This document shows, one piece after another, positions 1 to 45,396 of a stretch of DNA of 64,000 nucleotides; the first letter of the stretch is position 1, and each line of letters starts with the position of its first letter. A model generated the notes under the pieces. That model saw only the letters and a list, made by a program, of their open reading frames with translations. It searched no databases and was not told where the DNA came from. The stretch is from the NCBI RefSeq assembly GCF_057098645.1, contig NZ_CM169472.1; one strand, written 5' to 3'. A program made the position numbers and the translations under genes.

Positions 1-417
1 TTAATCAATAAACAAGGCGGGAGAAATGCCGAATCGCGTTGCCAATTTTTTAGCGTGTTCCAGCGTTAATTTCCTCTTCCCGCTCAAAACGCGTGACACC
101 ATAGATTTACTGCCAATTTCCGGCAGATCGGAAAGGGTTAAACCATATTGATCCATAAGGGTACGAATCACGGCTATACCGCCAGGCATGGCTTGAGCCA
201 TGGCATTAAATTCCGCAAATTCGGGCGCTGATTCTTCCCACGCGGTTATTTTGGCACACACCAGATCCAGTAAGGGGTTTTCAGGATCGTTGAGCAGCAA
301 ATGATCTACCAGTTCCAGCGCCTGGGTGTATTGTTCCTCGTTCTGAATACCCGCCAGAAAAGGTGCCACAGCAGTTAGCTTTTCTCCTGCTTGCAAGATG
401 TCGGCAATCGCAATCAT
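1..417 (-). CDS. higA: HigA antitoxin (XRE-type HTH), intact
   Basis: Complete 138-aa ORF recognised as E. coli HigA; its start overlaps the stop of the higB 3' fragment. Confidence 0.9.
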   Translation of the reverse strand: MIAIADILQAGEKLTAVAPFLAGIQNEEQYTQALELVDHLLLNDPENPLLDLVCAKITAWEESAPEFAEFNAMAQAMPGGIAVIRTLMDQYGLTLSDLPEIGSKSMVSRVLSGKRKLTLEHAKKLATRFGISPALFID

Positions 418-653
418 TTTTTCCCCTTAGTACGATGAACAGCGGTAAAGAAATCGTATTCTTTATGCGTCATAACTTCACGTATGTAGCACTTTTGCGA
501 TTCAAAAAAGACCATTGCTACAACACGTAATTCATTGCCCCCAACATTGAAAACATAATGCTTATCCAGATATTTGAAGTTATCCAGAGATGGGAATACT
601 GCTTTTAATGACTCAGGTTTTTTGAAATATCCCTTAGCAATCGTGTTCCCTAG
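414..653 (-). pseudogene. higB: higB toxin, 3' fragment (about codons 27-104), separated from its 5' end by IS2
   Basis: ORF 414..680 translates to ...LGNTIAKGYFKKPESLKAVFPSLDNFKYLDKHYVFNVGGNELRVVAMVFFESQKCYIREVMTHKEYDFFTAVHRTKGKK, matching the HigB C-terminus; its first 10 codons come from the IS2 end. Confidence 0.85.
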
Positions 654-664
654 TGGATTTGCCC

Positions 665-1570
665 CTATATTTCCAGACATCTGTTATCACTTAACCCATT
701 ACAAGCCCGCTGCCGCAGATATTCCCGTGGCGAGCGATAACCCAGCGCACTATGCGGATGCCATTCGTTATAATGCTCGAACGCCTCTGCAAGGTTCTTT
801 GCTGCCGTTAACCCGTCTGGTTTGGGCATGATACTGATGTAGTCACGCTTTATCGTTTTCACGAAGCTCTCTGCTATTCCGTTACTCTCCGGACTCCGCA
901 CCGCCGTGTTCTTCGGTTCAAGTCCCAACATCCGGGCGAACTGGCGTGTTTCATTAGCCCGGTAGCATGAACCATTATCCGTCAGCCACTCCACTGGAGA
1001 CGACGGAAGATCGTTGCCGAAGCGGCGTTCCACCGCTCCCAGCATGACGTCCTGTACTGTTTCACTGTTGAAGCCGCCGGTAGTCACCGCCCAGTGCAGT
1101 GCCTCACGATCACAGCAGTCCAGCGCGAACGTGACACGCAGTCTCTCTCCGTTATCACAGCAGAACTCGAACCCGTCAGAGCACCATCGCTGATTGCTTT
1201 CTTTCACGGCCACTCTGCCTGTATGTGCCCGTTTCGATGGCGGTACAGCAGGTTTTCGCTCAAGCAACAGCGCATTCTGGCGCATGATCCGGTAAACACG
1301 TTTGGCATTGATCGCAGGCATACCATCAAGTTCTGCCTGTCTGCGAAGCAGCGCCCATACCCGACGATAACCATACGTGGGCAGCTCTCCGATAACATGG
1401 TGTATACGGAGAAGCACATCCGTATCATCAGTGTGACGACTGCGGCGGCCATCCATCCAGTCATCGGTTCGTCTGAGAATGACGTGCAACTGCGCACGCG
1501 ACACCCGGAGACAACGGCTGACTAAGCTTACTCCCCATCCCCGGGCAATAAGGGCGCGTGCGCTATCCAC
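665..1570 (-). CDS. insD: IS2 transposase InsD (OrfB, DDE integrase fold)
   Basis: 301-aa ORF matching IS2 InsD as recalled. Confidence 0.95.
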
Positions 1571-1893
1571 TTTTTTGCCCGTCCATATTCAACGGCTTCT
1601 TTGAGGAGTTCATTTTCCATCGTTTTCTTGCCGAGCAGGCGCTGGAGTTCTTTAATCTGCTTCATGGCGGCAGCAAGTTCAGAGGCAGGAACAACCTGTT
1701 CTCCGGCGGCCACAGCAGTAAGACTTCCTTCCTGGTATTGCTTACGCCAGAGAAATAACTGGCTGGCTGCTACACCATGTTGCCGGGCAACGAGGGAGAC
1801 CGTCATCCCCGGTTCAAAGCTCTGCTGAACAATTGCGATCTTTTCCTGTGTGGTACGCCGTCTGCGTTTCTCCGGCCCTAAGACATCAATCAT
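1528..1893 (-). CDS. insC: IS2 InsC (OrfA, HTH); overlaps insD as expected for -1 frameshift production of an InsCD fusion
   Basis: ORF 1528..1938 contains the 121-aa InsC sequence starting [13 protein letters not shown]; start trimmed to that Met. Confidence 0.9.
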
Positions 1894-1984
1894 CTGTTCT
1901 CCAATGACTAGTCTAAAAACTAGTATTAAGACTATCACTTATTTAAGTGATACTGGTTGTCTGGAGATTCAGGGGGCCAGTCTA

Positions 1985-1989
1985 CCTAG
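1985..1989. repeat. 5-bp target site duplication CCTAG (right copy; left copy at 649..653)
   Basis: Identical pentamer directly abuts both IS2 ends. Confidence 0.9.
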
Positions 1990-2064
1990 AGCCACCAACT
2001 CCGTTTTATGTTGCGGGTATTTTTCCGCAGCATCTTTCAATGCTTTTTGAGTTATCAGGTGCAT
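1985..2064 (-). pseudogene. higB: higB toxin, 5' fragment (codons 1-26)
   Basis: Reverse complement reads ATG CAC CTG ATA ACT CAA AAA GCA TTG AAA GAT GCT GCG GAA AAA TAC CCG CAA CAT AAA ACG GAG TTG GTG GCT CTA GG = MHLITQKALKDAAEKYPQHKTELVAL, the HigB N-terminus. Confidence 0.85.
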
Positions 2065-2130
2065 TCTTCATCACGTCCGTTGACAAATTGGCAATATGAT
2101 AACATCCGTTGACAGATTGGCAACGGATGA
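2065..2130 (-). promoter_or_regulatory. higBA promoter/operator region with two related palindromes (ccgttgacaaattggcaa; ccgttgacagattggcaacgg)
   Basis: Inverted repeats directly upstream of the higB start codon; now separated from higA by IS2. Confidence 0.5.
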
Positions 2131-2246
2131 ATTTATCTGTGTGACGGAAGAATAAACGTAGAAAAACGCTAAACAAGAGAATGTAGAGGATGGTGACAGG
2201 GATTTTTTGTTTTATGGAAGCGCGATTCCAGAACTGGGCAGACATT

Positions 2247-2334
2247 GCCGGATGCGACGCTTGACGCGTCTTATCCGGCCTGGGAGTAACGTGCTGAACG
2301 TAGGCCGGATAAGGCGTTCACGCCGCATCCGGCA
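2247..2334. repeat. REP/BIME palindromic unit pair
   Basis: gccggatgcgacgc..gcgtcttatccggcc and taggccggataaggcg..gccgcatccggca motifs. Confidence 0.7.
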
Positions 2335-2348
2335 GGTTGTTCTCAACC

Positions 2349-3485
2349 TTATCGACGACGCCCGAGCTTCACCGCTTTCAGCACCACAAATTTATTATTC
2401 GTCGCAATAGTGGTGCAGTTGCCGAAAATCTTCTTCAGTTTATGGAAGTAATTCAGGTGACGGTTGGCAACGATATACAGTTCGCCGTTGATTTTCAGGC
2501 AGCGGCGGGCGTGGTGGAACATCTCCCAGGCGACGTTATCGGTCAGCGCATGTTGCTGATGAAACGGCGGGTTGCAGAGCATAGCATTAAAGCGGAAAGG
2601 CTCCACGCCGGAGAGCGCGTTGTTGATCATAAATTCGCAGCGATCCAACGCCTCTGGCATGTTGGTTTCAACGTTCAAACGGCTGGAAGCAACCGCCATC
2701 GGCGATTCATCGACAAACACCACTTTCGCCTGCGGGTTTTTATCAAGCAGCGTCAGACCAATAACGCCATTACCGCAACCGAGATCGACAATCTCCCCTT
2801 CGAGATTCTCTGGCAGATGCTGTATAAAGAAGCGCGCGCCGATATCAAGCCCGGTGCGGGAGAAGACATTCGCATGGTTGTGGATAGTCCAGTCAGTACC
2901 TTCCAGCTTCCAGCTAACGGTCTGCGGCGCATCGGCCAGCGGCGGTTCATTGAAAGTGCAATTAATCAGGCGCGCTTTTTTCCATGCCAGCGTGGTGGTG
3001 GTCGTACCGAGTACTTTTTCGAACAGTTCCAGCGTGGAAGTGTGAATGTCACGGGCTTTGGCACCGGCAATAATACGTGTATCCGACGTGACCACTTTGC
3101 GCAGCGCACGCAGTTGCTGTTCCAGCAATGCCAGTGTTTTCGGCACTTTGATCAGCACAACACCCGGCTGTTGCGGGTAGTCGGCGGTGCTGTCGAGAAA
3201 CTTCACGCTCGACTCATCAATCCCGTTGAGGCGTAAATTCTCGCGCGTCGCCAGTTCACTGATGTATGAGTCGCCAATGCTGTACGGCTTATGTTCCGCC
3301 AGCGCGCAGCTTAACGCACCAAAGGCATCATTCAGGATCAACACCGGGCCGCGGATTTCTGTGTCGTCCAACTGTTGCAGCAAATATTCATCCGCCGCTT
3401 CCCACGCCTGTAGCGGGTTAACGTCATCCGTCGCCGGAAAACGTTGTAGTGTCAGTGAACGGAAACCGTTGTCTAAGTGGCTCAT
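2349..3485 (-). CDS. rlmG: 23S rRNA (guanine1835-N2)-methyltransferase RlmG
   Basis: ORF 2349..3515; start trimmed to [11 protein letters not shown].. (378 aa); tandem methyltransferase domains. Confidence 0.9.
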
Positions 3486-3569
3486 CGGCCCTCCTGAATG
3501 ATAAAATTTCGACATTGCCCCTGAAAAGGGTGCGTGAGTATACCCTTTTTCTCTTTTTCGTGGGCGGTT

Positions 3570-4073
3570 ATGAGCAATCTTACTTATCTTCAGGGTTATC
3601 CCGAGCAGCTACTTTCCCAGGTGCGAACACTGATTAACGAACAGCGTCTGGGCGATGTGCTGGCAAAACGCTATCCGGGAACACACGACTACGCCACCGA
3701 TAAAGCCCTCTGGCAATATACTCAGGATCTGAAAAATCAGTTTCTGCGTAATGCCCCGCCGATCAATAAAGTGATGTATGACAATAAGATCCATGTGCTA
3801 AAAAACGCGCTCGGGTTACATACCGCTGTTTCGCGTGTGCAGGGCGGCAAGCTGAAAGCAAAAGCAGAGATCCGCGTCGCTACCGTGTTTCGCAACGCGC
3901 CGGAACCGTTTTTGCGCATGATCGTGGTGCACGAGCTGGCGCACCTGAAGGAGAAAGAGCATAACAAAGCGTTTTACCAGTTGTGCTGTCATATGGAACC
4001 CCAGTACCACCAGCTTGAGTTCGACACCCGACTGTGGCTAACCCAGTTGTCGCTTGGGCAGGACAAAATCTGA
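3570..4073 (+). CDS. ygjP: YgjP, predicted metal-dependent hydrolase (HExxH motif seen: VVHELAHL)
   Basis: ORF 3534..4073 trimmed to [10 protein letters not shown].. (167 aa). Confidence 0.85.
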
Positions 4074-4149
4074 AAATGATGTCAGGCGTTATCTTTTCTT
4101 TCTTTAGCGCCTAAAATCGACCTCCCCCCTTTCGTTAAGGATAACGACC

Positions 4150-4842
4150 ATGCTGCGCGCATTTGCCCGCCTTCTTCTCCGTATTTGTTTTTCTCGCCGG
4201 ACTCTAAAGATTGCCTGCTTACTGTTACTTGTGGCAGGAGCGACCATTTTTATCGCCGATCGCGTAATGGTCAACGCCAGCAAACAGCTGACCTGGAGCG
4301 ACGTCAACGTCGTTCCGGCGCGTAACGTGGGCTTATTGCTGGGGGCCAGGCCGGGTAATCGCTACTTTACCCGACGTATTGATACCGCAGCAGAGTTGTA
4401 CCACGCCGGAAAAGTGAAATGGCTGTTAGTCAGTGGCGATAACGGACGTAAAAATTACGATGAAGCATCAGGTATGCAGCAGGCTTTGATCGCTAAAGGC
4501 GTACCGGCGAAAGTGATCTTCTGCGACTATGCCGGTTTCTCAACGCTTGATTCGGTAGTGCGTGCCAAAAAGGTGTTTGGGGAAAACCATATCACTATTA
4601 TTTCGCAAGAATTTCATAACCAACGCGCCATCTGGCTGGCAAAACAATACGGCATCGATGCTATCGGGTTTAACGCACCAGACCTGAATATGAAGCACGG
4701 TTTTTATACTCAGTTACGGGAGAAACTCGCCAGAATCAGCGCGGTGATTGACGCGAAAATCTTCCATCGTCAGCCAAAATATCTCGGGCCGTCGGTCATT
4801 ATTGGTCCGTTTAGTGAGCATGGTTTTCCAGCGCAGAAATAA
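4150..4842 (+). CDS. ygjQ: YgjQ, DUF218/ElyC-family membrane-anchored protein
   Basis: 230-aa ORF with N-terminal TM segment. Confidence 0.85.
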
Positions 4843-4920
4843 TGCGTATCCGCGCACGTCGAAGATGAAAAAGGCGTGCTACATTGACGGCAGAATCCCT
4901 TTATGGAGTATCCACGCGTT

Positions 4921-5907
4921 ATGATACGTTTCGCTGTGATTGGTACGAACTGGATCACTCGCCAGTTCGTCGAGGCCGCCCATGAGAGCGGTAAATACAA
5001 GTTAACCGCCGTTTATTCCCGCAGCCTTGAACAGGCCCAGCATTTCGCCAATGATTTTTCTGTCGAGCATCTGTTTACGTCGCTGGAAGCGATGGCGGAA
5101 AGCGATGCCATTGACGCGGTGTATATTGCCAGCCCGAATGCCCTGCACTTTTCCCAGACACAACTTTTCTTTAGCCACAAAATTCATGTGATTTGCGAGA
5201 AACCACTGGCGTCGAATCTGGCGGAAGTGGATGCCGCCATTGCCTGTGCGCGGGAAAATCAGGTGGTGCTGTTTGAGGCATTTAAAACCGCCAGCCTGCC
5301 GAACTTTCATTTGTTGCGCCAGGCGCTGCCGAAAGTCGGCAAACTGCGGAAAGTTTTTTTCAACTATTGCCAGTATTCCTCGCGGTATCAACGTTACCTG
5401 GACGGTGAGAATCCCAACACCTTTAATCCGGCATTCTCTAACGGTTCAATTATGGATATCGGCTTTTACTGCCTGGCGTCGGCGGTGGCGTTATTTGGTG
5501 AGCCGAAAAGCGTGCAGGCAACCGCCAGTTTGCTGGCAAGCGGCGTAGATGCCCACGGCGTGGTGGTAATGAATTACGGTGATTTCAGCGTTACGTTGCA
5601 GCACTCAAAAGTCAGTGATTCTGTCCTGGCAAGCGAAATTCAGGGCGAAGCGGGATCGCTGGTGATTGAAAAACTGTCTGAATGCCAGAAAGTATGCTTT
5701 GTGCCGCGTGGCAGCCAGATGCAGGATCTCACCCAGCCGCAGCATATTAATACCATGCTCTACGAAGCAGAGCTGTTCGCTACCCTGGTGGATGAGCATC
5801 TGGTGGATCATCCGGGACTGGCGGTCAGTCGCATCACCGCCAAATTGCTGACAGAGATCCGCCGCCAGACAGGGGTGATTTTTCCGGCAGATAGCGTAAA
5901 ACAATAA
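4921..5907 (+). CDS. ygjR: YgjR, Gfo/Idh/MocA-family NAD(P)-dependent oxidoreductase
   Basis: ORF 4903..5907 trimmed to MIRFAVIGTNWI.. (328 aa); Rossmann GxGxxG-like N-terminus. Confidence 0.85.
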   Translation: MIRFAVIGTNWITRQFVEAAHESGKYKLTAVYSRSLEQAQHFANDFSVEHLFTSLEAMAESDAIDAVYIASPNALHFSQTQLFFSHKIHVICEKPLASNLAEVDAAIACARENQVVLFEAFKTASLPNFHLLRQALPKVGKLRKVFFNYCQYSSRYQRYLDGENPNTFNPAFSNGSIMDIGFYCLASAVALFGEPKSVQATASLLASGVDAHGVVVMNYGDFSVTLQHSKVSDSVLASEIQGEAGSLVIEKLSECQKVCFVPRGSQMQDLTQPQHINTMLYEAELFATLVDEHLVDHPGLAVSRITAKLLTEIRRQTGVIFPADSVKQ

Positions 5908-5934
5908 TTGTTACCGTAAAGCAGTGTAAAAGGC

Positions 5935-6190
5935 ATGTAACAGACCATTGACTGGGTGAATGGTCTGTCATACTTTGTTACCTGCAAAGGGGAGTAACTT
6001 CATTGCCGGTCGATCGTCATTACGATGTGTGAAAAATCACATCCGGTCACCGGGCAACCCGAAAGGAATACGCAGACGTATTCCTTTTTTGTTGTAAGTG
6101 AGACCTTGCCGGAAGGCGAGGTCTATGCATAAAAAGCAGCGGCTGACGTCTTCCGACGTTGGCCGTTTTTTTTATGTGTAAGGAACTTCT
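5935..6190 (+). promoter_or_regulatory. alx 5' leader (pH/Mn-responsive element, yybP-ykoY-type riboswitch; the SraF sRNA region in K-12)
   Basis: About 280 bp non-coding leader upstream of alx, ending in a hairpin plus T8 run and RBS aaggaa; identity from recollection of the K-12 locus. Confidence 0.6.
6138..6173 (+). terminator. Leader intrinsic terminator/attenuator hairpin followed by T8
   Basis: gcagcggctgacgtcttccgacgttggccg followed by tttttttt, 18 bp before the alx ATG. Confidence 0.55.
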
Positions 6191-7156
6191 ATGAATACTG
6201 TCGGCACGCCGTTGCTATGGGGCGGATTCGCTGTTGTTGTCGCCATTATGCTGGCTATCGACCTGTTGTTGCAGGGGCGTCGTGGGGCACATGCCATGAC
6301 CATGAAACAGGCTGCGGCCTGGTCGCTGGTCTGGGTGACGCTGTCGTTACTGTTTAACGCCGCTTTCTGGTGGTATCTGGTGCAAACCGAAGGTCGCGCC
6401 GTTGCCGATCCACAGGCACTGGCCTTTCTCACGGGTTATCTGATTGAGAAATCGCTGGCGGTCGATAACGTCTTTGTCTGGCTGATGTTGTTCAGCTATT
6501 TCTCCGTTCCGGCGGCATTACAACGTCGCGTGCTGGTGTATGGCGTGCTCGGGGCGATTGTTCTGCGTACCATCATGATCTTCACAGGCAGCTGGCTGAT
6601 TTCGCAGTTCGACTGGATCCTGTATATCTTCGGTGCCTTCCTGCTGTTTACCGGCGTGAAGATGGCGCTGGCCCATGAAGATGAATCAGGCATTGGCGAC
6701 AAGCCGCTGGTGCGCTGGCTACGCGGTCATTTGCGCATGACCGACACCATCGACAACGAGCATTTCTTTGTGCGTAAGAATGGATTGCTGTACGCCACAC
6801 CGCTGATGCTGGTACTGATTCTGGTGGAATTGAGCGACGTGATTTTTGCCGTGGATAGCATTCCGGCTATCTTCGCCGTGACCACTGACCCGTTCATTGT
6901 GCTGACCTCAAACCTGTTTGCGATCCTCGGCCTGCGTGCGATGTATTTCCTGCTGGCGGGCGTAGCAGAGCGTTTCTCGATGCTCAAATATGGCCTGGCG
7001 GTGATTCTGGTATTTATCGGTATCAAGATGCTGATTGTCGACTTCTACCATATTCCGATCGCCGTCTCGCTGGGCGTGGTGTTTGGCATCCTGGTGATGA
7101 CGTTTATTATCAACGCCTGGGTGAATTATCGGCATGATAAGCAGCGGGGAGAATGA
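6191..7156 (+). CDS. alx: Alx, TerC-family inner membrane protein (putative Mn exporter)
   Basis: 321-aa multi-TM ORF matching Alx/YgjT. Confidence 0.9.
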
Positions 7157-7261
7157 TCCGCTGTATATTAAGCCATTACTAGAGATAACTCATTCCAGAC
7201 AAAGGTGAGCTATTAATTATGTAATCGGCTTATAGCTCTTTACAAAAAGACCGCACGGGTG

Positions 7262-7458
7262 TTGGTGGCGTCAAAATCGCCGAAGCGTTCCCTTGCGCCC
7301 GAACCGGTAGCCGCAAGGGATAAGCTGAGGGAACCGCGCAGCGGCGATTTTGTTCGCCAGAGCCTGGGGGTGCAGGGGGCGGCGGCGATTGGCCGTCCCC
7401 TGCGCGCTCCTTGCGCCAGTGACTTTATATGGCATAGCACATTAAAGGAGCGCAACCG
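7262..7458. repeat. GC-rich nested-palindrome element in the alx-sstT intergenic region (possibly a boxC-like repeat)
   Basis: Arms ggcgtcaaaatcgccg (7267..7282) and cggcgattttgttcgcc (7342..7358); inner cccttgcg (7290..7297) and cgcaaggg (7312..7319); embedded in AT-rich flanks. Confidence 0.4.
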
Positions 7459-7711
7459 TTCTCATATTCCAAATAGTTTTGCCCATATGTTATCTAATCA
7501 GCCTTAGTAGCCAGTCCTTCCCTCTGTTTATGTCAAATAAATGTAACCATTAAGTTGCAAAACATGAGCTCTCTTTAAAATCCAGCATTTTTCGCTTCCC
7601 GAAGCTGTAACTTTCCTTATACTCGACCTTGCAAACACTTTGTTACATCCTGAAAGATGCGTCGACAGAACGCACCAGGGATGTGCGACAACACAATGAA
7701 AGGATCGAAAA

Positions 7712-8956
7712 ATGACTACGCAACGTTCACCGGGGCTATTCCGGCGTCTGGCTCATGGCAGCCTGGTAAAACAAATCCTGGTCGGCCTTGTTCTGGGGAT
7801 TCTTCTGGCATGGATCTCAAAACCCGCGGCGGAAGCTGTTGGTCTGTTAGGTACTTTGTTCGTCGGCGCACTGAAAGCTGTTGCCCCCATCCTGGTGTTG
7901 ATGCTGGTAATGGCATCTATTGCTAACCACCAGCACGGGCAGAAAACCAATATCCGTCCTATTTTGTTCCTCTATCTGCTGGGCACCTTCTCTGCAGCTC
8001 TGGCCGCAGTAGTCTTCAGCTTTGCCTTCCCTTCTACCCTGCACCTGTCCAGTAGCGCGGGTGATATTTCGCCGCCGTCAGGCATTGTCGAAGTGATGCG
8101 TGGACTGGTAATGAGCATGGTTTCCAACCCCATTGACGCGCTGCTGAAAGGTAACTACATCGGGATCCTGGTGTGGGCAATTGGCCTCGGTTTCGCACTG
8201 CGTCACGGTAACGAAACCACCAAAAACCTGGTCAACGATATGTCGAATGCCGTCACCTTTATGGTGAAACTGGTCATTCGCTTCGCACCGATCGGTATTT
8301 TTGGGCTGGTTTCTTCTACCCTGGCAACCACCGGTTTCTCCACACTGTGGGGCTACGCGCAACTGCTGGTCGTGCTGGTGGGCTGTATGTTACTGGTGGC
8401 GCTGGTGGTTAACCCATTGCTGGTGTGGTGGAAAATTCGTCGTAACCCGTTCCCGTTGGTGCTGCTGTGCCTGCGCGAAAGCGGCGTGTATGCCTTCTTC
8501 ACCCGCAGCTCTGCAGCTAACATTCCGGTGAATATGGCGCTGTGTGAAAAGCTGAATCTGGATCGCGATACCTATTCCGTTTCTATTCCGCTGGGTGCCA
8601 CCATCAATATGGCGGGCGCAGCAATCACCATTACCGTGTTGACGCTGGCTGCGGTTAATACGCTGGGTATTCCGGTCGATCTGCCCACAGCGCTGCTGTT
8701 GAGCGTAGTGGCTTCTCTGTGTGCCTGTGGCGCATCCGGCGTGGCGGGGGGGTCTCTGCTGCTGATCCCACTGGCCTGTAATATGTTCGGTATTTCGAAC
8801 GATATCGCCATGCAGGTGGTTGCCGTCGGCTTTATCATCGGCGTATTGCAGGACTCTTGCGAAACCGCGCTGAACTCTTCAACTGACGTGCTATTCACTG
8901 CGGCAGCTTGCCAGGCAGAAGACGATCGTCTGGCAAATAGCGCCCTGCGTAATTAA
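7712..8956 (+). CDS. sstT: Serine/threonine:Na+ symporter SstT
   Basis: 414-aa ORF matching SstT. Confidence 0.95.
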
Positions 8957-8960
8957 TTGT

Positions 8961-33839: not shown

Positions 33840-34778
33840 CTAACCAACTTCTATTAATTGCCTTCGTCTACACCCATTATAAGATGAATACTCTTTGGCT
33901 AATTCCACCAAAACCGATGCTGCTTTTTTAATACGATAATTTTTCGACCATACCGCGGCATATTGTGCCACAGGTAATGTTTCTTCAACCGGAATAGTAA
34001 TAAATTGATTAGAACCAAAAGGTGACGTCATATCACAAGGAATTACAGTTAAGAAATCAGCATTGAGAACAAGATTATAAATTGTCACGACTGAGTCGGT
34101 TTTAACGATGTTTTCAATACTGATGCCATTTCTTTGTAACGTAGTAAGCAGTTCGCTGTAGTACCCCATATTGGTTTGTGGCAACACCCACTGTTCGTTC
34201 TTCAACGACTCCAGCGTGGTGGTGCCGGTGCATGTTCGGGACTTACTGGCTACCAGCACAAACTCGGACTCGAACAGCGCCTCAACATGTAAATCCTGAA
34301 GCTTCATTTCTGTGCTTAACGTACCAATCGCAAAATCAAGTCGACCGTCGCGGATTGCCGGTAAGAACGAAGACAGTTGCGCTTCATACATAGAAACCTG
34401 CGCTTTTGGGAACACCTCTTTGAACTTATTGATCATCCCTGACATAAAAGTAAAACCAATCAATGAAGGAAAACCAAATGAGACTTCCACCACCGCCTCA
34501 GAAGACATACCGCTTATCTCATTAACCATATTTTTCATTTCACGGGTAATGGATTCGGAACGGGAGAGTAACAATTGACCGGCAGGTGTTAATGTTACAC
34601 CGGTATTTTTCCGCACCACTAATTCCACACCAAAATAATCTTCAATATCGTTAATGATTTTACTGACGGCTGGTTGAGTTAACCCTAATTCTTTTGCAGC
34701 CGAGCCGATAGAGCCACTTCTAATGACTTCCTGAAAGACTACCAGGTGCTGCGTTTTCGGAAGAAGAATAGTGCTCAT
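33840..34778 (-). CDS. tdcA: TdcA, LysR-type activator of the tdc operon
   Basis: 312-aa ORF with HTH. Confidence 0.9.
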   Translation of the reverse strand: MSTILLPKTQHLVVFQEVIRSGSIGSAAKELGLTQPAVSKIINDIEDYFGVELVVRKNTGVTLTPAGQLLLSRSESITREMKNMVNEISGMSSEAVVEVSFGFPSLIGFTFMSGMINKFKEVFPKAQVSMYEAQLSSFLPAIRDGRLDFAIGTLSTEMKLQDLHVEALFESEFVLVASKSRTCTGTTTLESLKNEQWVLPQTNMGYYSELLTTLQRNGISIENIVKTDSVVTIYNLVLNADFLTVIPCDMTSPFGSNQFITIPVEETLPVAQYAAVWSKNYRIKKAASVLVELAKEYSSYNGCRRRQLIEVG

Positions 34779-34841
34779 AACGACCTACGTTAATTACCTC
34801 ATTGACGGCATGAAGTGTATCAAAATGAAATGAACAGGATA

Positions 34842-34857
34842 TGTGCGACCACTCACA
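34842..34857. promoter_or_regulatory. CRP-like site TGTGC-N6-TCACA in the tdc promoter region
   Basis: tgtgcgaccactcaca about 65 bp upstream of the tdcA start; fits the consensus TGTGA-N6-TCACA. Confidence 0.5.
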
Positions 34858-34966
34858 AATTAACTTTCAATACTTTCCAGAGTATCGTCATGTCAATTAA
34901 ATGCCTTTAAATATCAACAAGTTAAAGTATAAAAATCAGCATAAACCCTGATTTTTGTCAAAAAAA

Positions 34967-35311
34967 ATGACGGGGATAACCATATTTTATGGCGATAACA
35001 TCATTCGTTATGTGGTTAATACAAAAAAGAGGCTGAGACCATATTTCAAGCAATTACCGGATAATTACCAGGCAAAATTTGAGTTAAATTTAATGAGCAA
35101 GTTCTCAAATTTTATTATAAATAAACCATTTTCAGCGATAAATAATGCGGCACGTCACATTTTTTCACGCTATTTGTTGGAGAACAAACAATTATTTTAT
35201 CAATATTTTAAAATTTCGAATACAGGTATTGATCATCTCGAACAATTGATTAACGTCAACTTTTTCTCTTCTGACAGGACGTCATTTTGTGAATGCAATC
35301 GTTTTCCATAA
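34967..35311 (+). CDS. tdcR: TdcR, small activator of tdc (start codon uncertain)
   Basis: AT-rich ORF 34955..35311 divergent from tdcA. Confidence 0.6.
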   Translation: MTGITIFYGDNIIRYVVNTKKRLRPYFKQLPDNYQAKFELNLMSKFSNFIINKPFSAINNAARHIFSRYLLENKQLFYQYFKISNTGIDHLEQLINVNFFSSDRTSFCECNRFP

Positions 35312-35566
35312 ATTCTTCTCCCCTCATAGGCGACGAATAGCATTTTGTGTTGAGGATCACAAAATGAATAATTGCTGGTCGCCGCGATAAGGTCAGACAA
35401 AGACAACAAGGGAAATTTTCACAGAGCTTTTGATCGGCGTAGGCCACAGAATGTTGCTTCGTTTACTGTAACGCCGGGTAAATGAGCGTTTTTTGATAGT
35501 GCGAAAGAACCCTGCGAGGAAAATAAGCATCTATTATTGTTTGTCATGATGACAAGGCAGGCATCA

Positions 35567-37315: not shown

Positions 37316-37430
37316 ACTTAATAACTTCTTACAAAGTCTATTATTAATACCGTAGATATTCATCTTACCCTGTGCACCAAAAGCAAAAACTTATCGACGC
37401 GGGTTTGAAACTGATGGCAACCGCAAAAAT

Positions 37431-37528
37431 GCCTGATGCGCTACGCTTATCAGGCCTACGCCATCTCTGCAATATATTGAATTTGCGTGCTTTTGTAGGC
37501 AGGATAAGGCGTTCACGCCGCATCCGGC
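37431..37528. repeat. REP/BIME elements
   Basis: gcctgatgcgctacgcttatcaggcctac and taggcaggataaggcgttcacgccgcatccggca. Confidence 0.6.
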
Positions 37529-37582
37529 ATGAATAAAGCGCACTCAACAGTCTGAAACCCGCCGGAACGGTTTATTACGTAC

Positions 37583-37808
37583 ATCAGGTGAAACTGACCG
37601 ATAAGCCGCTTTCTTTTGGGTCTAGCGTCGTGGACAGTCATTCATCTTTCTGCCCCTCTAAAAGCAAAAACCCGCCGAAGCGGGTTTTTACGTAAATCAG
37701 GTGAAACTGACCGATAAGCCGCTTTCTTTTGGGTATAGTGTCGTGGACAGTCATTCATCTTTCTGCCCCTCCAAAAGCAAAAACCCGCCGAAGCGGGTTT
37801 TTACGTAA
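37583..37808 (-). repeat. Two tandem 113-bp repeats downstream of rnpB, each copying the rnpB 3' end plus a terminator hairpin
   Basis: Units 37583..37695 and 37696..37808 are near-identical and each contain aaaacccgccgaagcgggttttt; the rnpB 3' end (from 37809) is a third, partial copy. Confidence 0.85.
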
Positions 37809-37811
37809 ATC

Positions 37812-38189
<378 letters not shown>

Positions 38190-38220
38190 GCGCGCAGTAT
38201 AGAGGGTTTGCGCGCCCTTG

Positions 38221-39366
38221 TCACCCCGCGTTGCGCATTCCAATCGCCAGTGTCGCGGCGATATTACGTGAAGCACGGTAGATATTGTCATAAGCCCCGC
38301 GGAATGCTTCGTCCAACGTACCAATGCTGGTCAGTACGCTGAAGACCGCATCAATACCATGCTGATGTACAACGCCAACATCATCGGTCAGGCTACCCGC
38401 AATGCCAATCACCGGTTTATGGTACTTCTTCGCCACGTTTGCGACGCCAATCGGTACCTTGCCGTGAATACTCTGGCTGTCAATACGCCCTTCACCGGTG
38501 ATCACCAGCGTACAATCGTGAATATGTTCCTCCAGATTCAGCGCCGTAGTGACGATTTCAATACCACTTTTCAGTTCCGCACCAAGAAACGCCATCAGCG
38601 CCGCTCCCATACCGCCAGCAGCACCTGCGCCGGGGACATCTTTCACATCAACATGCAGTGCTTTTTTAATGACCTCGGCATAGTGAGAGAGGTTATTGTC
38701 CAGCTCAACAATCATCGCTTCACTGGCTCCCTTTTGTGGGCCAAAGATGCGCGATGCGCCGTTATCGCCCACCAGCGGATTGGTGACATCACAAGCGACG
38801 CGAATGACGCAATCTTTTAAGCGCGGATCGAGGCCGGAAATATCAATATCATTCAGAGTATTAAGACTACCGCCGCCAAAACCAATTTCATTGCCGTTGG
38901 CGTCGCATAATTTCGCCCCCAGCGCCTGTACCATGCCTACGCCGCCATCATTTGTAGCGCTGCCGCCAATGCCGATAATAATGTTTGTCGCGCCGCTCTC
39001 CAGCGCCTGCAGGATTAACTCGCCTGTGCCGCGTGAAGTGGTCACGAGTGGATCGCGTTTTTCCGCAGGTACCAGCTCCAGCCCACTGGCCGCCGCCATT
39101 TCAATAAACGCGGTTTTGCCATCGCCGGAGATCCCCCAACTGGCATTCACTTTCTCGCCCAGCGGCCCTGTAACCCAGGCGTGACGTTCGGAACCCTGGG
39201 TGGCTGCAATCATCGCTTCCACCGTTCCTTCGCCACCGTCGGCAACAGGAACAGAAACGTACTGTGCATCAGGAAAAATTTCCCGAAATCCTTTTTCTAT
39301 CGCCTGCGCAACCTCGCTGGCAGATAAACTTTCTTTATAAGAGTCTGGGGCGATTACGATTTTCAT
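38221..39366 (-). CDS. garK: Glycerate 2-kinase GarK
   Basis: ORF 38221..39447 trimmed to MKIVIAPDSYKESL.. (381 aa). Confidence 0.9.
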   Translation of the reverse strand: MKIVIAPDSYKESLSASEVAQAIEKGFREIFPDAQYVSVPVADGGEGTVEAMIAATQGSERHAWVTGPLGEKVNASWGISGDGKTAFIEMAAASGLELVPAEKRDPLVTTSRGTGELILQALESGATNIIIGIGGSATNDGGVGMVQALGAKLCDANGNEIGFGGGSLNTLNDIDISGLDPRLKDCVIRVACDVTNPLVGDNGASRIFGPQKGASEAMIVELDNNLSHYAEVIKKALHVDVKDVPGAGAAGGMGAALMAFLGAELKSGIEIVTTALNLEEHIHDCTLVITGEGRIDSQSIHGKVPIGVANVAKKYHKPVIGIAGSLTDDVGVVHQHGIDAVFSVLTSIGTLDEAFRGAYDNIYRASRNIAATLAIGMRNAG

Positions 39367-39462
39367 ACCTATGCCTGTTACCACATGACGCCGGAGGGCG
39401 TTTCTCTTATTCGGCCTGGATTCCAGGCCCGGATTGCAATACGCCATCCGGGCACGACGTCA

Positions 39463-40347
39463 TTAACGAGTAACTTCGACTTTCGCCAGTTTTTCGTAGT
39501 AGCACGCCAGGGCGCTATGATCCGCCGTTCCTAAACCATCTGCACGCAGTGCCTGCATCATCTCCATAACCGCAGCTGTGAGCGGCAGTTGTGCGCCGAC
39601 GCCGTGAGAAGTATCCAGCGCATTCGCCAGATCCTTAATATGCAGATCAATGCGGAAGCCCGGCTTGAAGTTGCGGTCCATCACCATCGGCGCTTTGGCA
39701 TCCAGCACGGTACTGCCCGCCAGCCCACCGCGAATTGCCTGATAAACCAGGTCAGGGTTAACGCCCGCTTTAGTTGCCAGCGTTAACGCTTCTGACATCG
39801 CAGCAATATTCAGCGCCACAATGACCTGATTTGCCAGTTTGGTGACGTTACCTGCACCGATTTCCCCGGTATGCACCACGGAACCCGCCATCGCTTTCAT
39901 CAAATCATAGTATTTGTCGAAAATAGCCTTGTCGCCGCCTACCATCACTGACAGCGTACCGTCGATGGCTTTCGGTTCACCGCCGCTCACCGGAGCATCC
40001 AGCATATCAATGCCTTTCGCTTTCAGCGCTTCGCTGATTTCACGGCTTGCCAGCGGTGCGATAGAACTCATATCGATCAATACCGTACCTGGCTTCGCGC
40101 CTTCAATAATGCCATTCTCACCCAGCGCCACCTCTTTCACATGAGGGGAGTTTGGCAGCATGGTTATGATGACGTCGCACTGTTCAGCGATCGCTTTAGC
40201 CGTAGACGCTGTTTCTGCACCTGCAGCAATCACGTCAGCAATAGCTTCTGGGTTACGGTCAGCAACCACCAGCGAGTAACCTGCTTTCAGAAGGTTTTTA
40301 CTCATTGGTTTACCCATAATCCCCAGGCCAATAAAACCAACTTTCAT
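39463..40347 (-). CDS. garR: Tartronate semialdehyde reductase GarR
   Basis: ORF 39463..40362 trimmed to MKVGFIGLGIMG.. Confidence 0.9.
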   Translation of the reverse strand: MKVGFIGLGIMGKPMSKNLLKAGYSLVVADRNPEAIADVIAAGAETASTAKAIAEQCDVIITMLPNSPHVKEVALGENGIIEGAKPGTVLIDMSSIAPLASREISEALKAKGIDMLDAPVSGGEPKAIDGTLSVMVGGDKAIFDKYYDLMKAMAGSVVHTGEIGAGNVTKLANQVIVALNIAAMSEALTLATKAGVNPDLVYQAIRGGLAGSTVLDAKAPMVMDRNFKPGFRIDLHIKDLANALDTSHGVGAQLPLTAAVMEMMQALRADGLGTADHSALACYYEKLAKVEVTR

Positions 40348-40382
40348 AGTCATATCAATCATCTCTCTTGTTGCGGTGGTGG

Positions 40383-41153
40383 TTATTTTTTAAAGGCATC
40401 AGCCAGTTTCTGAGTGGCAGAGCGGAAGACGCCGAGATCGCTGCCGACAGCCACAAACGTCGCGCCCCATGCCAGATAACGACGCGCATCGGCTTCGACC
40501 GGCGCGAGGATACCGCTGGGTTTGCCGTGCGCGCTGGCACGGTTAAAAATGTGCTGAATTGCTTTTTGTACATCCGGGTGCGAGGCATTGCCGAGATGGC
40601 CTAATGCCGCAGCCAGATCGCTGGGGCCGACGAAGATGCCGTCTACGCCTTCGGTAGCGGCAATGGCATCGACGTTATCTACGCCCTGCTGACTTTCTAT
40701 CTGGACCAGAATAGTGATGTTCTTGTTCGACTGAGCGAAATAATCCGCCACGGTGCCAAACATATTGGCGCGGTGAGAAACGGAGACGCCGCGAATGCCT
40801 TCTGGCGGATAACGCGTCGATGCCACCGCCTGCTCTGCTTCCTCTTTTGTTTCTACAAAAGGAATCAGGAAGTTATAGAAACCGATATCCAGAAGACGCT
40901 TAATAATTACCGGCTCGTTGGTCGGCACTCGTACTACTGGCGCGCTGGCGCTGCCTTTCAGGGCCATTAACTGCGGAATAAACGTGGAGATATCGTTTGG
41001 CGCATGTTCGCCATCCAGCACCAGCCAGTCAAACCCAGCCAAACCAAGAACTTCAGTGCTAATCGGGTTAGAGAGTGCTGACCAGCAACCAATTTGTACC
41101 TGTTTCGCAGCCAGTGCGGCTTTGAATTTATTCGGGAAAACATCGTTATTCAT
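40383..41153 (-). CDS. garL: 5-keto-4-deoxy-D-glucarate aldolase GarL
   Basis: 256-aa ORF. Confidence 0.9.
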
Positions 41154-41168
41154 CGCTTATACCTTTGC

Positions 41169-42503
41169 TTATTTCTGCAATTCCATACGTTTAATGTCGC
41201 CAACTACGAAGAGGTAGCAGACCATCGCCATCAGCGCTGAACATCCCACGAAAACCAGTGCTGCATTGAAGGAGTGCAGTTCACTTACCAGGTAGCCAAT
41301 CACCAGTGGAGTGACAATGGAGGCAACATTACCAAAGACGTTAAAGACGCCGCCGCAGAGGCCAACAATCTCTTTCGGCGCGGTGTCAGAAATTACCGGC
41401 CAGCCCAGCGCACCAAATCCTTTGCCAAAGAAAGCCAGCGCCATCAGCATGACCACCAGCGTGGTGTTGTTGGTGTAGTTACATAAGATGATGGTGGAAG
41501 CCAGCAACATTCCCAGCACAATCGGTAGCTTACGTGCCAGGGTCAGGGATAAACCGCGTTTGATCAGATAATCCGAGAAGACACCTCCCAGCACGCCGCC
41601 CGCAAAACCACACAGTGCCGGAATCGAGGCGACCAGACCCACTTTCAGAATCGACATGCCTTTTTCCTGCACCAGATAAATCGGGAACCAGGTGAGGAAG
41701 AACCAGGTGATGGTGTTGATAAAATATTGTCCGAAAAATACGCCAAGCATCATGCGGTTAGAGAGCAATTGCTTGATGTAATGCAGTTTGGGTCCGCTTG
41801 CTGCCGCACTGCCCGGCTTTTTGTGGTCCATATCGACCACCGCGCCATTTTCAGAGATAAACTTCAGCTCTTCCGCAGACATACGTGGGTGATCTGTCGG
41901 GTTATGAATCAACTTTATCCACAGCGCCGTCAGCACAAAACCAATCCCCCCCATAACGGTAAAGACGTGCTCCCAGCCCCAGGCGAAAGTCAGCCAGCCA
42001 AGCAGAGGCGAAAAGAGCGCCAGCGAGAAATATTGCGCCGAGTTAAAGATGGCGGAGGCAGTACCACGTTCTTTCGTCGGGAACCAGGCGGCGACAATAC
42101 GGGCGTTCGCCGGGAATGATGGCGCTTCCGAAAACCCCAGCATAAAGCGCATAAAGAACATGGAGATCCCTGCCCAGGCCAGCGGGAACATATCAACAAA
42201 GCCTTGCAGGAAGGTGAATAGCGACCAGAAAAAGAGGCTATAGGTGTAAACTTTTTTCGAGCCAAACTTATCAAGCAGCCAGCCGCCGGGGATTTGCATC
42301 AGCAAGTAGGCCCAGCCAAAAGCAGAAAAGATGTAACCCATCGAAACCGCACTTAACTGCAACTCTTTTGCCACTTCGGTACCAGCAATAGACAGCGTTG
42401 CACGATCGGCGTAGTTAACGGCGGTAACAATAAAAATAATCAGTAATATTAAATAGCGGGTATGCACGCCTTTCTTTTTTTCGTCAACGGTGTCCAGAAT
42501 CAT
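41169..42503 (-). CDS. garP: Galactarate/glucarate transporter GarP (MFS)
   Basis: 444-aa ORF. Confidence 0.9.
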   Translation of the reverse strand: MILDTVDEKKKGVHTRYLILLIIFIVTAVNYADRATLSIAGTEVAKELQLSAVSMGYIFSAFGWAYLLMQIPGGWLLDKFGSKKVYTYSLFFWSLFTFLQGFVDMFPLAWAGISMFFMRFMLGFSEAPSFPANARIVAAWFPTKERGTASAIFNSAQYFSLALFSPLLGWLTFAWGWEHVFTVMGGIGFVLTALWIKLIHNPTDHPRMSAEELKFISENGAVVDMDHKKPGSAAASGPKLHYIKQLLSNRMMLGVFFGQYFINTITWFFLTWFPIYLVQEKGMSILKVGLVASIPALCGFAGGVLGGVFSDYLIKRGLSLTLARKLPIVLGMLLASTIILCNYTNNTTLVVMLMALAFFGKGFGALGWPVISDTAPKEIVGLCGGVFNVFGNVASIVTPLVIGYLVSELHSFNAALVFVGCSALMAMVCYLFVVGDIKRMELQK

Positions 42504-42877
42504 TTTATTTACCTCGGGTACTTATGCTGATTTTTATTATTATGGGGAAGGTGTTATTTATGAGTTTCATTTATGCCGTAACGACAATGAACTCGGGAAT
42601 TAGTATAAGCAGCGCGAGAATAATAATCATTGTGCAAATGCTAATTTAATTAATACTATTTAAATATTATTTTGAGCATATGCACATAAGGTTGCGCGCT
42701 AAAGCACAGATTTGCGCTTTACCTTGCCGGGCGGCACTGCAATCCCTGAAATGATTGACATTGATCACATTTCTGCGTTTAAACTCCTGACATTCTTATT
42801 TCACCCAATGAAGTCATTTATTTTTAAATGAGACCAGGTCCTCATTTTAATAACCCCTGGCTGGAGAATATTGCACA

Positions 42878-44449
42878 ATGGCCAACATCGAAATCAGACA
42901 AGAAACGCCAACTGCGTTTTATATAAAAGTTCACGACACAGATAATGTGGCAATTATTGTTAATGATAATGGCCTGAAAACAGGAACGCGTTTTCCGGAT
43001 GGGCTGGAATTAATTGAACATATTCCCCAGGGGCATAAAGTCGCATTGCTGGACATTCCGGCTAATGGTGAAATTATTCGTTATGGCGAAGTGATTGGTT
43101 ACGCCGTGCGTGCAATCCCACGCGGAAGCTGGATCGACGAATCAATGGTTGTACTACCGGAAGCGCCGCCGTTACACACGCTGCCACTGGCAACCAAAGT
43201 CCCGGAACCCTTACCGCCGCTGGAAGGATACACCTTTGAGGGCTATCGCAATGCCGATGGCAGCGTGGGCACCAAAAACCTGCTTGGCATCACCACCAGC
43301 GTCCACTGTGTGGCAGGCGTGGTGGACTACGTAGTAAAAATCATTGAACGCGATCTGCTACCGAAATACCCGAACGTCGATGGCGTGGTGGGGCTGAATC
43401 ATTTGTACGGTTGTGGCGTGGCGATTAACGCACCGGCGGCAGTTGTACCTATCCGTACCATTCACAATATTTCGCTGAATCCTAACTTTGGCGGCGAAGT
43501 AATGGTGATTGGCCTGGGTTGTGAAAAGTTGCAGCCTGAGCGCCTGCTGACTGGAACGGATGATGTGCAAGCTATTCCAGTAGAAAGCGCCAGCATTGTC
43601 AGTTTGCAGGATGAAAAGCATGTCGGTTTTCAGTCCATGGTCGAGGATATTTTGCAGGTCGCCGAACGCCATCTACAAAAACTGAATCAACGTCAGCGAG
43701 AAACCTGTCCGGCTTCAGAACTGGTTGTCGGCATGCAGTGCGGTGGCAGCGATGCCTTTTCTGGCGTAACGGCAAACCCGGCGGTTGGGTATGCGTCTGA
43801 TCTACTGGTGCGCTGCGGCGCAACGGTGATGTTTTCAGAAGTCACGGAAGTGCGTGACGCGATCCATCTGCTGACACCACGCGCAGTGAACGAAGAGGTC
43901 GGCAAACGGCTGCTGGAGGAGATGGAGTGGTACGATAACTATCTCAATATGGGAAAAACCGACCGCAGCGCCAACCCTTCGCCGGGCAACAAGAAAGGCG
44001 GTCTGGCAAACGTGGTAGAGAAAGCGCTCGGCTCCATTGCTAAATCGGGTAAAAGTGCAATTGTTGAAGTGCTGTCGCCCGGTCAACGCCCGACTAAACG
44101 CGGATTAATTTACGCCGCGACGCCAGCCAGCGATTTTGTCTGTGGCACGCAACAGGTGGCTTCGGGTATCACAGTGCAAGTGTTTACGACCGGCCGTGGT
44201 ACGCCGTACGGCCTGATGGCGGTACCCGTCATTAAAATGGCAACCCGCACCGAGCTGGCGAACCGCTGGTTTGATTTAATGGATATTAACGCGGGCACTA
44301 TCGCCACCGGCGAAGAAACCATTGAAGAGGTGGGCTGGAAGTTGTTCCACTTTATTCTCGACGTCGCCAGCGGGAAGAAGAAAACCTTCTCGGATCAATG
44401 GGGACTGCATAACCAGCTGGCGGTGTTTAACCCGGCACCGGTGACCTGA
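42878..44449 (+). CDS. garD: Galactarate dehydratase GarD
   Basis: 523-aa ORF divergent from garPLRK. Confidence 0.95.
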
Positions 44450-44471
44450 TTTCTTTTGGAACGTCCCTCGC

Positions 44472-44500
44472 AAAACATGGCCTTAGTGCCATGTTTTTAT
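44472..44500 (+). terminator. Rho-independent terminator after garD
   Basis: aaaacatggc cttagt gccatgtttt followed by tat. Confidence 0.6.
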
Positions 44501-44509
44501 TGTTTAAAG

Positions 44510-44596
44510 CCCCCACGTCCATTAATAATGCATTTGCATTACTTTGCTGAAGCTTATAATTTGAGCAGAAAACAGGCTGTAAAAGTACAGTGCCTA
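44510..44596 (+). promoter_or_regulatory. prlF-yhaV promoter/operator with palindrome aatgcatttgcatt
   Basis: Inverted repeat at 44527..44540 upstream of the prlF start. Confidence 0.4.
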
Positions 44597-44932
44597 ATGC
44601 CCGCTAATGCTCGCTCTCACGCTGTACTGACCACTGAATCAAAGGTCACGATACGCGGACAAACAACTATCCCCGCGCCAGTGCGTGAGGCCTTAAAACT
44701 GAAGCCAGGCCTGGACAACATTCATTACGAAATTCTGCCTGGTGGGCAAGTATTTATGTGCCGACTGGGAGATGAACAGGAGGATCATACTATGAATGCA
44801 TTTTTGCGTTTTCTGGATGCAGATATCCAGAACAACCCGCAAAAAACTCGTCCATTCGACATTCAACAAGGAAAGAAACTTGTCGCTGGCATGGACGTCA
44901 ACATTGATGATGAGATTGGCGACGACGAATAA
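44597..44932 (+). CDS. prlF: PrlF (SohA) antitoxin, AbrB/SpoVT-type
   Basis: ORF 44456..44932 trimmed to MPANARSHAVLTTESKVTIRGQTTIP.. (111 aa). Confidence 0.85.
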   Translation: MPANARSHAVLTTESKVTIRGQTTIPAPVREALKLKPGLDNIHYEILPGGQVFMCRLGDEQEDHTMNAFLRFLDADIQNNPQKTRPFDIQQGKKLVAGMDVNIDDEIGDDE

Positions 44933-45396
44933 TGGATTTTCCACAAAGGGTTAATAGTTGGGCGCTATATGCTCATCCCTGTTTTCAGGAAACCTACGAC
45001 GCTTTAGTTGCCGAAGTCGAGACATTAAAGGGAAAAGATCCTGAAAATTATTAGAGAAATGCCGCCACAAAGTTATTGGCAGCAGTTCACAAAGTGATTG
45101 AGGAGCATATCACGGTCAATCCATCATCGCCGGCATTCCGTCATGGCAAGTCGTTAGGCTCTGGGAAAAATAAAGACTGGTCACGGGTAAAATTTGGTGC
45201 TGGTCGTTATCGTCTCTTCTTTCGTTATAGTGAAAAAGAGAAAGTCATCATTCTGGGATGGATGAACGATGAAAACACTCTTCGCACCTACGGTAAAAAA
45301 ACAGATGCCTATACCGTATTCAGCAAAATGTTAAAAAGAGGACATCCTCCTGCCGACTGGGAAAGCCTCACCCAAGAGACAGAAGAAAACCATTGA
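44932..45396 (+). pseudogene. yhaV: yhaV toxin (ribosome-dependent RNase) with in-frame TAG at codon 41
   Basis: ATG at 44932 overlaps the prlF stop; MDFPQRVNSWALYAHPCFQETYDALVAEVETLKGKDPENY then TAG at 45052..45054; same frame continues as ..AAVHKVIEEHITVNPSSPAFRHGK.. to 45396. Confidence 0.8.

Follow-up and report, generated by a model that had tools for sequence, protein, structure and literature searches.

The window analysed here is a stretch of 64,000 nucleotides from contig NZ_CM169472.1 (assembly GCF_057098645.1), a segment of an E. coli O145:H28-like chromosome. It carries two type II toxin-antitoxin modules, higBA and prlF-yhaV. Their genes and associated features are as follows, with positions counted from the first nucleotide of the window.

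1-417, minus strand: higA, antitoxin gene; intact ORF of 138 aa, identical to K-12 HigA and to WP_000560266.1 annotated in RM12761
414-653, minus strand: 3' fragment of higB, codons 26-104 and stop
649-653, no strand: first copy of the target-site duplication CCTAG, read off the sequence
654-1984, minus strand: IS2, 1331 bp with 4 mismatches to K-12 IS2A; insC and insD are oriented like higB and higA
1985-1989, no strand: second copy of the target-site duplication CCTAG, read off the sequence
1985-2064, minus strand: 5' fragment of higB, ATG at 2064-2062, codons 1-27
2096-2123, minus strand (read 2123-2096): native higBA promoter predicted by consensus scan (TTGCCA, 16-nt spacer, TATCAT), within the operator repeats
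44597-44932, plus strand: prlF, antitoxin gene; intact ORF of 111 aa, with L39, N41, and D88 where K-12 has Q, S, and N
44932-45396, plus strand: yhaV, toxin pseudogene with an internal stop
44956, plus strand: missense change G9S in the yhaV pseudogene, absent from RM13514, RM12761, REL606, the three other TAG carriers compared, and K-12
45052-45054, plus strand: premature TAG at codon 41 of 154 in yhaV; CAG (Q41) in K-12

The higBA (ygjNM) pair of K-12 has been validated by experiment (PMC2814082). In the window, higB is interrupted at codons 26-27 by an intact IS2 and thus would no longer encode a functional toxin. The inserted element has the length and sequence identity of IS2, two overlapping transposase frames, and a 5-bp target duplication. 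Both frames are intact, and InsC (121 aa) and InsD (301 aa) are the same as the proteins of the K-12 copies. When IS2 and one CCTAG are removed in silico, higB again encodes a protein of 104 aa that matches K-12 HigB exactly. The reconstructed higB overlaps higA by 4 nt, and the pair, toxin first and then the HTH antitoxin, is homologous to that of K-12. A sequencing artefact is ruled out for this lesion by the perfect target duplication. The 5' fragment of higB runs on into IS2 and terminates after four further codons (RLAP). At the other end of the element, 27 nt of IS2 and the 3' fragment form an 88-aa hybrid ORF (414-680, minus strand), whose translation starts with nine IS2-derived residues (MSGNIGANP) followed by HigB residues 26-104. 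A single, HigA-repressed promoter has been mapped upstream of higB (PMC2814082), and 1.3 kb of IS2 now lies between higA and this sole mapped promoter in the window's strain. The consensus scan found no promoter-like site from IS2 to higA.

In the second module, prlF is followed by the overlapping yhaV, and the pair is located between garD and agaR with the same synteny as in K-12. PrlF matches the K-12 protein at 108 of 111 residues. The gene is nucleotide-identical to the allele of RM13514 and REL606 (WP_001300560.1), which is annotated as intact in these genomes. With TAG at codon 41, yhaV is not expected to encode a functional toxin. The same yhaV allele is flagged by PGAP/RefSeq as having an internal stop in RM13514, RM12761, REL606, and others. 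The RefSeq annotation of the near-identical RM13514 has no further type II pair across the window, and the Rfam scan of the window found rnpB only. The preliminary description had stated that both type II toxin genes of the window are broken by different mechanisms while their antitoxin genes are whole, and this is what we found: IS2 splits higB, a CAG>TAG change stops yhaV, and higA and prlF are full-length, "intact" here referring to their open reading frames. At both loci, an orphan antitoxin (an intact antitoxin ORF beside an inactivated toxin gene) is thus left.

The two lesions differ in age. By its distribution, yhaV Q41* is an old, inherited allele, because it is found in at least 169 genomes, in backgrounds with diverged flanks, and together with secondary lesions. 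An exact match to the 71-mer around the TAG occurs in 169 of 5,426 complete E. coli genomes, and a stop common to so many genomes is not a sequencing artefact. Its carriers include both O145:H28 strains examined and E. coli B (REL606). Three others, 510016, NCCP12480, and wlxctx60, have the same yhaV stop and PrlF protein as the window despite a divergence of about 1-1.6% in the flanking garD and agaR. A 71-mer with a second stop, W10*, was matched in 97 genomes, including REL606 (sequence-checked) and BL21 strains (71-mer match). The three yhaV copies sequenced through (510016, NCCP12480, and REL606) all have W10*, Q41*, and R85W. The pseudogene of E. coli B (REL606 and BL21 strains; RefSeq) therefore resembles that of the window in having Q41* beside a nucleotide-identical prlF but differs from it in W10* and R85W, where the window copy has G9S and T145S instead. 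Four of the six changes that arose in yhaV after the stop are nonsynonymous or nonsense. Our literature search returned nothing specific on the yhaV pseudogene in BL21.

In contrast, the higB::IS2 junction was absent from all of the genomes searched (0 of 5,426 complete E. coli genomes). Across higA and the higB fragments flanking IS2, RM12761 does not differ from the window, and the next 18 kb shows just two differences. Judged from these comparisons, higB::IS2 is private to the window's strain and recent. It is one new allele documented at this locus.

With high probability, the window records two chromosomal type II toxin-antitoxin loci that decayed independently, through events unrelated to each other. 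The yhaV stop would have arisen once and would now be drifting as a pseudogene in O145:H28, the E. coli B lineage, and other strains, while higB would have been struck recently, in the window's strain alone, by an active IS2 transposing into codons 26-27. We infer from the sequences that HigB and YhaV have lost their toxin activity and that both events were neutral. The asymmetry of dead toxins and live antitoxins would follow from the logic of addiction: a mutation that kills the toxin can be tolerated, whereas one that kills the antitoxin would be counter-selected as long as the toxin is alive. Toxin-first decay is the only viable order of loss, and because loss of the antitoxin is counter-selected under a live toxin, any decaying module passes through an orphan antitoxin stage. 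Since there are only two modules, and since a live toxin forbids antitoxin loss, the asymmetry is not beyond expectation.

Decay of this kind has parallels in known systems. The chromosomal ccdO157 type II module decays within E. coli through deletions and nonsense mutations (Mine et al. 2009, as cited in PMC2654758 and PMC7167474). As presented in these citing papers, it is likewise a chromosomal type II module degenerating in the species, with inactive toxin mutants as the expected route, but CcdB is a gyrase poison while the toxins of the window are RelE-superfamily RNases. Copies of hok/sok in K-12 are inactivated by IS elements, point mutations, or rearrangements (cited in PMC2654758). 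From that citation, they are similar in that one genome has lost several toxin genes in different ways, IS insertion among them, but they are type I systems with RNA antitoxins. Orphan antitoxins are abundant in E. coli (PMC10790755). An orphan higA is found at fadH-rlmG in the phylogroup B2 strains CFT073 and NRG857c, the same locus as in the window and again with HigB lost and higA kept (PMC7232551). While it is described there merely as an orphan, the common orphan allele found here is a 325-bp deletion from which the promoter is gone. The window differs from this common allele in having a private IS2, while neither the promoter nor either half of higB has been lost.

It is possible, but doubtful, that selection keeps the antitoxins for some role that they play by themselves, such as transcription regulation, anti-addiction against plasmid or phage toxins (a model established for ccd, PMC2654758), or covering a HigB-family paralogue. 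The population-level counts for higA are in its favor. Full-length higA is found in 4371 of the 4376 genomes carrying higA, full-length higB in only 2822 of 4281, and about 35% of higA carriers, species-wide, are orphans without full higB, roughly 1,550 in number. Across the nine alleles compared, HigA hardly varies: K-12, O145, 2014C-3051, MSHS133, and M1/5 encode one and the same protein, WP_000560266.1, and elsewhere only two strain-specific single substitutions are seen. The higA haplotypes compared have 0 nonsynonymous against 7-9 synonymous differences (7 synonymous to 0 nonsynonymous between two carriers of the 325-bp deletion), but this synonymous divergence may predate the deletions. 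The near-unchanged HigA argues that higA is at least not simply awaiting decay, and together with the species-wide counts it gives limited support to selected retention of the antitoxin. Against this, the 325-bp deletion allele, present in roughly 1,450 genomes, also removes the promoter and operators. The promoter predicted in the window sits in the region missing from that allele, and in the window's strain higA is cut off from it by IS2. Moreover, the IS2 insertion is so recent that the retention of higA in this strain is uninformative on selection.

For prlF, there are 0 nucleotide changes between O145 and the E. coli B lineage compared with 6 in yhaV. However, the invariance is part of an identical tract of about 0.9 kb that extends beyond prlF into the 3' end of garD, the spacer, and 197 nt at the start of the yhaV pseudogene. 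It was thus rejected as clean evidence of purifying selection, and shared recent ancestry or recombination explains it better than constraint. An intact HigB-family paralogue pair exists in the sister strain RM13514, but its toxin, WP_000547563.1, is only 40% and its antitoxin only 46% identical. The suggestion of the preliminary description that the antitoxins are kept for their own sake finds some support for higA at the population level.

Independent decay is also to be preferred over adaptive toxin loss in the lineage, in which both knock-outs would have been positively selected, for example by a lower cost of growth arrest or abortive infection. This is improbable, even though higB has been lost independently by five different events. 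M1/5 has an independent 206-bp deletion in higB, and three independent IS insertions (in the window, SCU-105, and RM9154-C1) are found at three different sites. Selection against the toxin, instead of drift, could be behind this recurrent loss of higB in the species. As for yhaV, two distant backgrounds have the stop allele on a short tract of identical sequence, suggesting spread by recombination. Split higB is seen in only about 6 genomes compared with roughly 2,800 having full-length higB, which by our informal estimate is of the order of magnitude expected if IS elements hit a dispensable gene of 315 bp at random, and these numbers are too small to call higB an IS hot spot. Within O145:H28, higB stays intact in most strains. 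Private disruptive lesions are also found in non-toxin genes of the same 64 kb: in the window's strain, yqjG is frameshifted by +AA and yhaH has a deletion of 48 bp, while RM12761 has a frameshift in garP and a stop in kbaZ.

Selection against toxins, which the preliminary description had read from the genome pattern, falls to both of the refuting conditions set there. It fails on the timing of the lesions, as a long time separates the yhaV stop (at least 169 genomes) from the IS2 junction (none). Nor do other toxin-antitoxin loci bear it out. In RM13514, mazEF including mazF, the HigB-family paralogue pair, and a HicAB-family pair including the HicA-family toxin are all intact, and dinJ-yafQ and yafNO are missing as whole pairs. 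These loci are a sample taken in sister strains and not a census, none of chpSB, yefM-yoeB, and hipBA having been located. From RM13514 it appears that there is no genome-wide toxin purge. The position of mqsRA guessed from synteny in RM13514 is occupied by a tellurite-resistance/urease island.

Residual toxin activity, by which the hybrid HigB ORF or a YhaV restarted at TTG 45076 (106 aa) would be active and the antitoxins still needed, is very unlikely: the 88-aa hybrid does hold three quarters of HigB in frame after an ATG in the IS2 end, and a 106-aa ORF (45076-45396) does exist downstream of the yhaV stop, but the hybrid lacks residues 1-25 of HigB, a single-domain RNase of 104 residues whose K-12 structures span the whole chain, a truncated HigB would probably be unstable, neither start has an evident ribosome-binding site ahead of it, the stretch from IS2 to higA holds no promoter-like site, and the second stop and missense changes in yhaV of other carriers are as expected of a dead gene. 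A sequence search of structures found no solved structure of YhaV.

For the window's strain itself, independent decay at the two loci has little significance, being the ordinary and already documented decay of toxin-antitoxin pairs. As for the yhaV stop, the allele is widespread, public records already carry its annotation, and the E. coli B laboratory lineage (REL606 and BL21 strains) has it too. Pairs of dead toxin and live antitoxin should not be taken as a genome-level selective pattern until the ages of the lesions and other loci have been checked. The species-wide counts, in which higA is nearly always whole and higB is missing in about one third of carriers, merit a phylogeny-aware test of orphan HigA function. 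We suggest only tentatively that HigA is a stand-alone protein under purifying selection in the roughly one third of E. coli genomes that lack HigB and the higBA promoter and operators; the same may hold for PrlF in E. coli B and O145:H28. If true, a stand-alone HigA would imply a toxin-independent role, for instance in controlling other genes or in counteracting HigB-like toxins that arrive from outside.

The 64 kb of the window match the E. coli O145:H28 chromosome from higA, which adjoins fadH, to yraQ, with only a few substitutions per 10 kb relative to RM13514 and RM12761. No exact match to the window occurs in the collection, which comprises 5,426 complete E. coli genomes. According to the RefSeq annotation of RM13514, higBA and prlF-yhaV are the only type II toxin-antitoxin pairs over the matching stretch. 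As the preliminary description held, both toxin genes are broken in the window, by IS2 in higB and by a TAG codon in yhaV, and the antitoxin ORFs are kept at full length. The features are as follows.

1-417, minus strand: higA, encoding a 138-aa protein identical to K-12 HigA
414-680: hybrid ORF of 88 aa that begins with an ATG from the IS2 end and runs in frame to cover HigB residues 26-104
649-653 and 1985-1989: 5-bp direct duplication CCTAG flanking IS2
654-1984: IS2 in higB, 1331 bp, differing at 4 positions from K-12 IS2A
2123-2096: higBA promoter, present in the window
44597-44932: prlF, full ORF of 111 aa
44932-45396: yhaV, with TAG at 45052-45054 in place of CAG (Q41) in K-12

The inserted IS2 has intact InsC and InsD frames and lies at higB codons 26-27. 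When IS2 and one CCTAG copy are excised in silico, a 104-aa HigB identical to that of K-12 results. The higBA operon is reported to have a single promoter, which is repressed by HigA and located upstream of higB (PMC2814082). Since IS2 sits between this promoter and higA, and a search of the stretch from IS2 to higA found no promoter-like site, "intact" as applied to higA refers to its ORF. The higB::IS2 junction has no match among the 5,426 genomes. Across higA and the higB fragments on both sides of IS2, RM12761 does not differ from the window, and the next 18 kb differ at only two positions. Therefore, this insertion is private and recent.

The yhaV stop (Q41*) is old and inherited. An exact match to the 71 bases around it occurs in 169 of the 5,426 genomes, and public records already annotate the allele, which the NCBI pipeline flags as "internal stop" in RM13514, RM12761, REL606, and three other genomes. 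In three carriers outside O145:H28 (510016, NCCP12480, and wlxctx60), the garD and agaR flanks are about 1-1.6% diverged from the window; despite this divergence, they have the same stop and the same PrlF protein. A second stop, W10*, is also found in yhaV. The 71-mer containing it matches 97 genomes, REL606 and BL21 strains among them; in E. coli B it was identified by sequence in REL606 and by 71-mer match in BL21, C41/C43, and commercial derivatives (H256-H300). In each of the three carriers whose yhaV was compared over its full sequence, namely 510016, NCCP12480, and REL606 (where yhaV is at 707-1171 of the fetched stretch L020), W10*, Q41*, and R85W occur together. T145S belongs to the window's lineage and G9S to the window alone. 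With K-12 taken as the reference state, four of the six post-stop changes in yhaV are nonsynonymous or nonsense, a pattern that would be expected of a drifting dead gene. It is the sharing of the stop by 169 genomes and by divergent carriers, together with these extra changes, that indicates the age of the lesion.

REL606 prlF is identical to the window prlF at the nucleotide level. This gene lies in a tract of about 0.9 kb (window ~44240-45130) containing the garD 3' end, prlF, and yhaV nucleotides 1-197, in which the window has zero shared differences from 510016, NCCP12480, and wlxctx60, while the flanks differ by 1-1.5%. This suggests a recombination tract bearing the yhaV stop allele. Because the identical tract includes neutral sequence and part of a pseudogene, the invariance of prlF between O145 and E. 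coli B is better explained by recent common ancestry or by recombination than by constraint on the gene.

Private lesions, defined as differences from both RM13514 and RM12761 within the 64 kb, are also found outside the toxin genes.

~18792-19780, plus strand: yqjG (glutathionyl-hydroquinone reductase), with AA inserted at 19338-19339 relative to RM13514, RM12761, and K-12
20063-20380, plus strand: yhaH, lacking 48 bp in frame between direct repeats of 11 bp at ~20259-20269

The AA insertion shifts the yqjG frame past about codon 182; it either makes yqjG a pseudogene private to the strain or stems from a sequencing error. The yhaH deletion, private to the strain, removes 16 residues from YhaH. 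Several private nonsynonymous changes exist as well. All 11 coding substitutions between the window and RM13514 are nonsynonymous and none is synonymous, a ratio that is unusual when the changes are this few. Three of the eleven (ygjR L84F, yhaC D167E, and yhaV G9S) differ from RM12761 too, lpoA L181F and A356S fall outside the compared part of RM12761, and several others match RM12761. Substitution positions noted in the window are 5170, 36628, 44956, 60636, and 61161. RM12761 has private pseudogenes of its own, garP being frameshifted and kbaZ carrying an internal stop (39877-41210 and 45216-46496 of its fetched stretch L021); both genes are intact in the window. Thus, disruptive private mutations are common in these strains, mostly in non-toxin genes.

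After kbaY (window ~53000-58500), the gene order in this lineage is malX, a MalY/PatB-family gene, a PTS IIB gene fragment, a LysR regulator gene, an MBL-fold hydrolase gene, and rsmI. rnpB is the sole match in an Rfam scan of the window. Between yhaC and rnpB (37555-37834) are copies, ~95% identical, of a 167-bp unit whose copy number or arrangement varies among the window, RM13514, and RM12761; this is probably a REP-type repeat array.

The asymmetry in the window is best explained by ordinary toxin-first decay in two unrelated events. Loss of the antitoxin is harmful while the toxin works, so that a module can decay only toxin-first, via an orphan-antitoxin stage, and the asymmetry is expected. 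Documented cases are the decay of ccdO157 in E. coli and hok/sok copies that IS elements, point mutations, or rearrangements have disabled (PMC2654758, PMC7167474), orphan higA at the same locus in B2 strains (PMC7232551), and the abundant orphan antitoxins of E. coli (PMC10790755). The higB::IS2 allele adds a new, though unremarkable, case. The proposal that the two losses point to selection against toxins is not supported, the yhaV stop being old and inherited and higB::IS2 private and recent. Nor is there a general purge of toxins leaving antitoxins, as sampled in the sister strain RM13514, standing in for the window's strain: mazE-mazF, a HicA/HicB-family pair, and a second HigB-family toxin and HTH antitoxin pair between ascB and hycI (34645-35372 of its fetched stretch L015) are intact, and dinJ-yafQ and yafNO are each missing as a whole pair. 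The second HigB-family pair is absent from K-12, shares 40% identity with HigB and 46% with HigA, and is a possible cross-talk partner of the retained higA.

At the species level, 4371 of the 4376 genomes with higA carry the gene at full length, and the corresponding figure for higB is only 2822 of 4281; about 35% of higA carriers are orphans. For the other pair, full-length yhaV is found in 5120 of 5152 carriers and full-length prlF in 5154 of 5161. The common orphan higA allele is a 325-bp deletion in the rlmG-higA spacer (equivalent to window ~414-2150), in which higB nucleotides 1-237 are lost, as are the higBA promoter and operator repeats. Its end points are the same in 2014C-3051 (L011) and MSHS133 (L012), whose higA haplotypes differ. 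higB is reduced to its last 78 nt in ~1,450 of the 5,426 genomes. A separate deletion, of 206 bp within higB, is found in M1/5, and SCU-105 and RM9154-C1 have, at separate sites in higB, an IS2 variant and a different IS3-family element, respectively. K-12, O145, 2014C-3051, MSHS133, and M1/5 encode one and the same HigA (WP_000560266.1), and their higA haplotypes show 7-9 synonymous and no nonsynonymous differences. Over nine higA alleles, the only amino-acid changes are strain-specific single substitutions in RM13514 and SCU-105.

Retention of higA for its own sake, one suggestion of the preliminary description, is possible at the species level because the HigA protein is almost invariant. 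Three points limit this reading: the synonymous differences may be older than the deletions, a promoter is missing from the common orphan allele, and the insertion in this strain is too recent for retention to be informative. The one thread worth pursuing is selection on orphan HigA.
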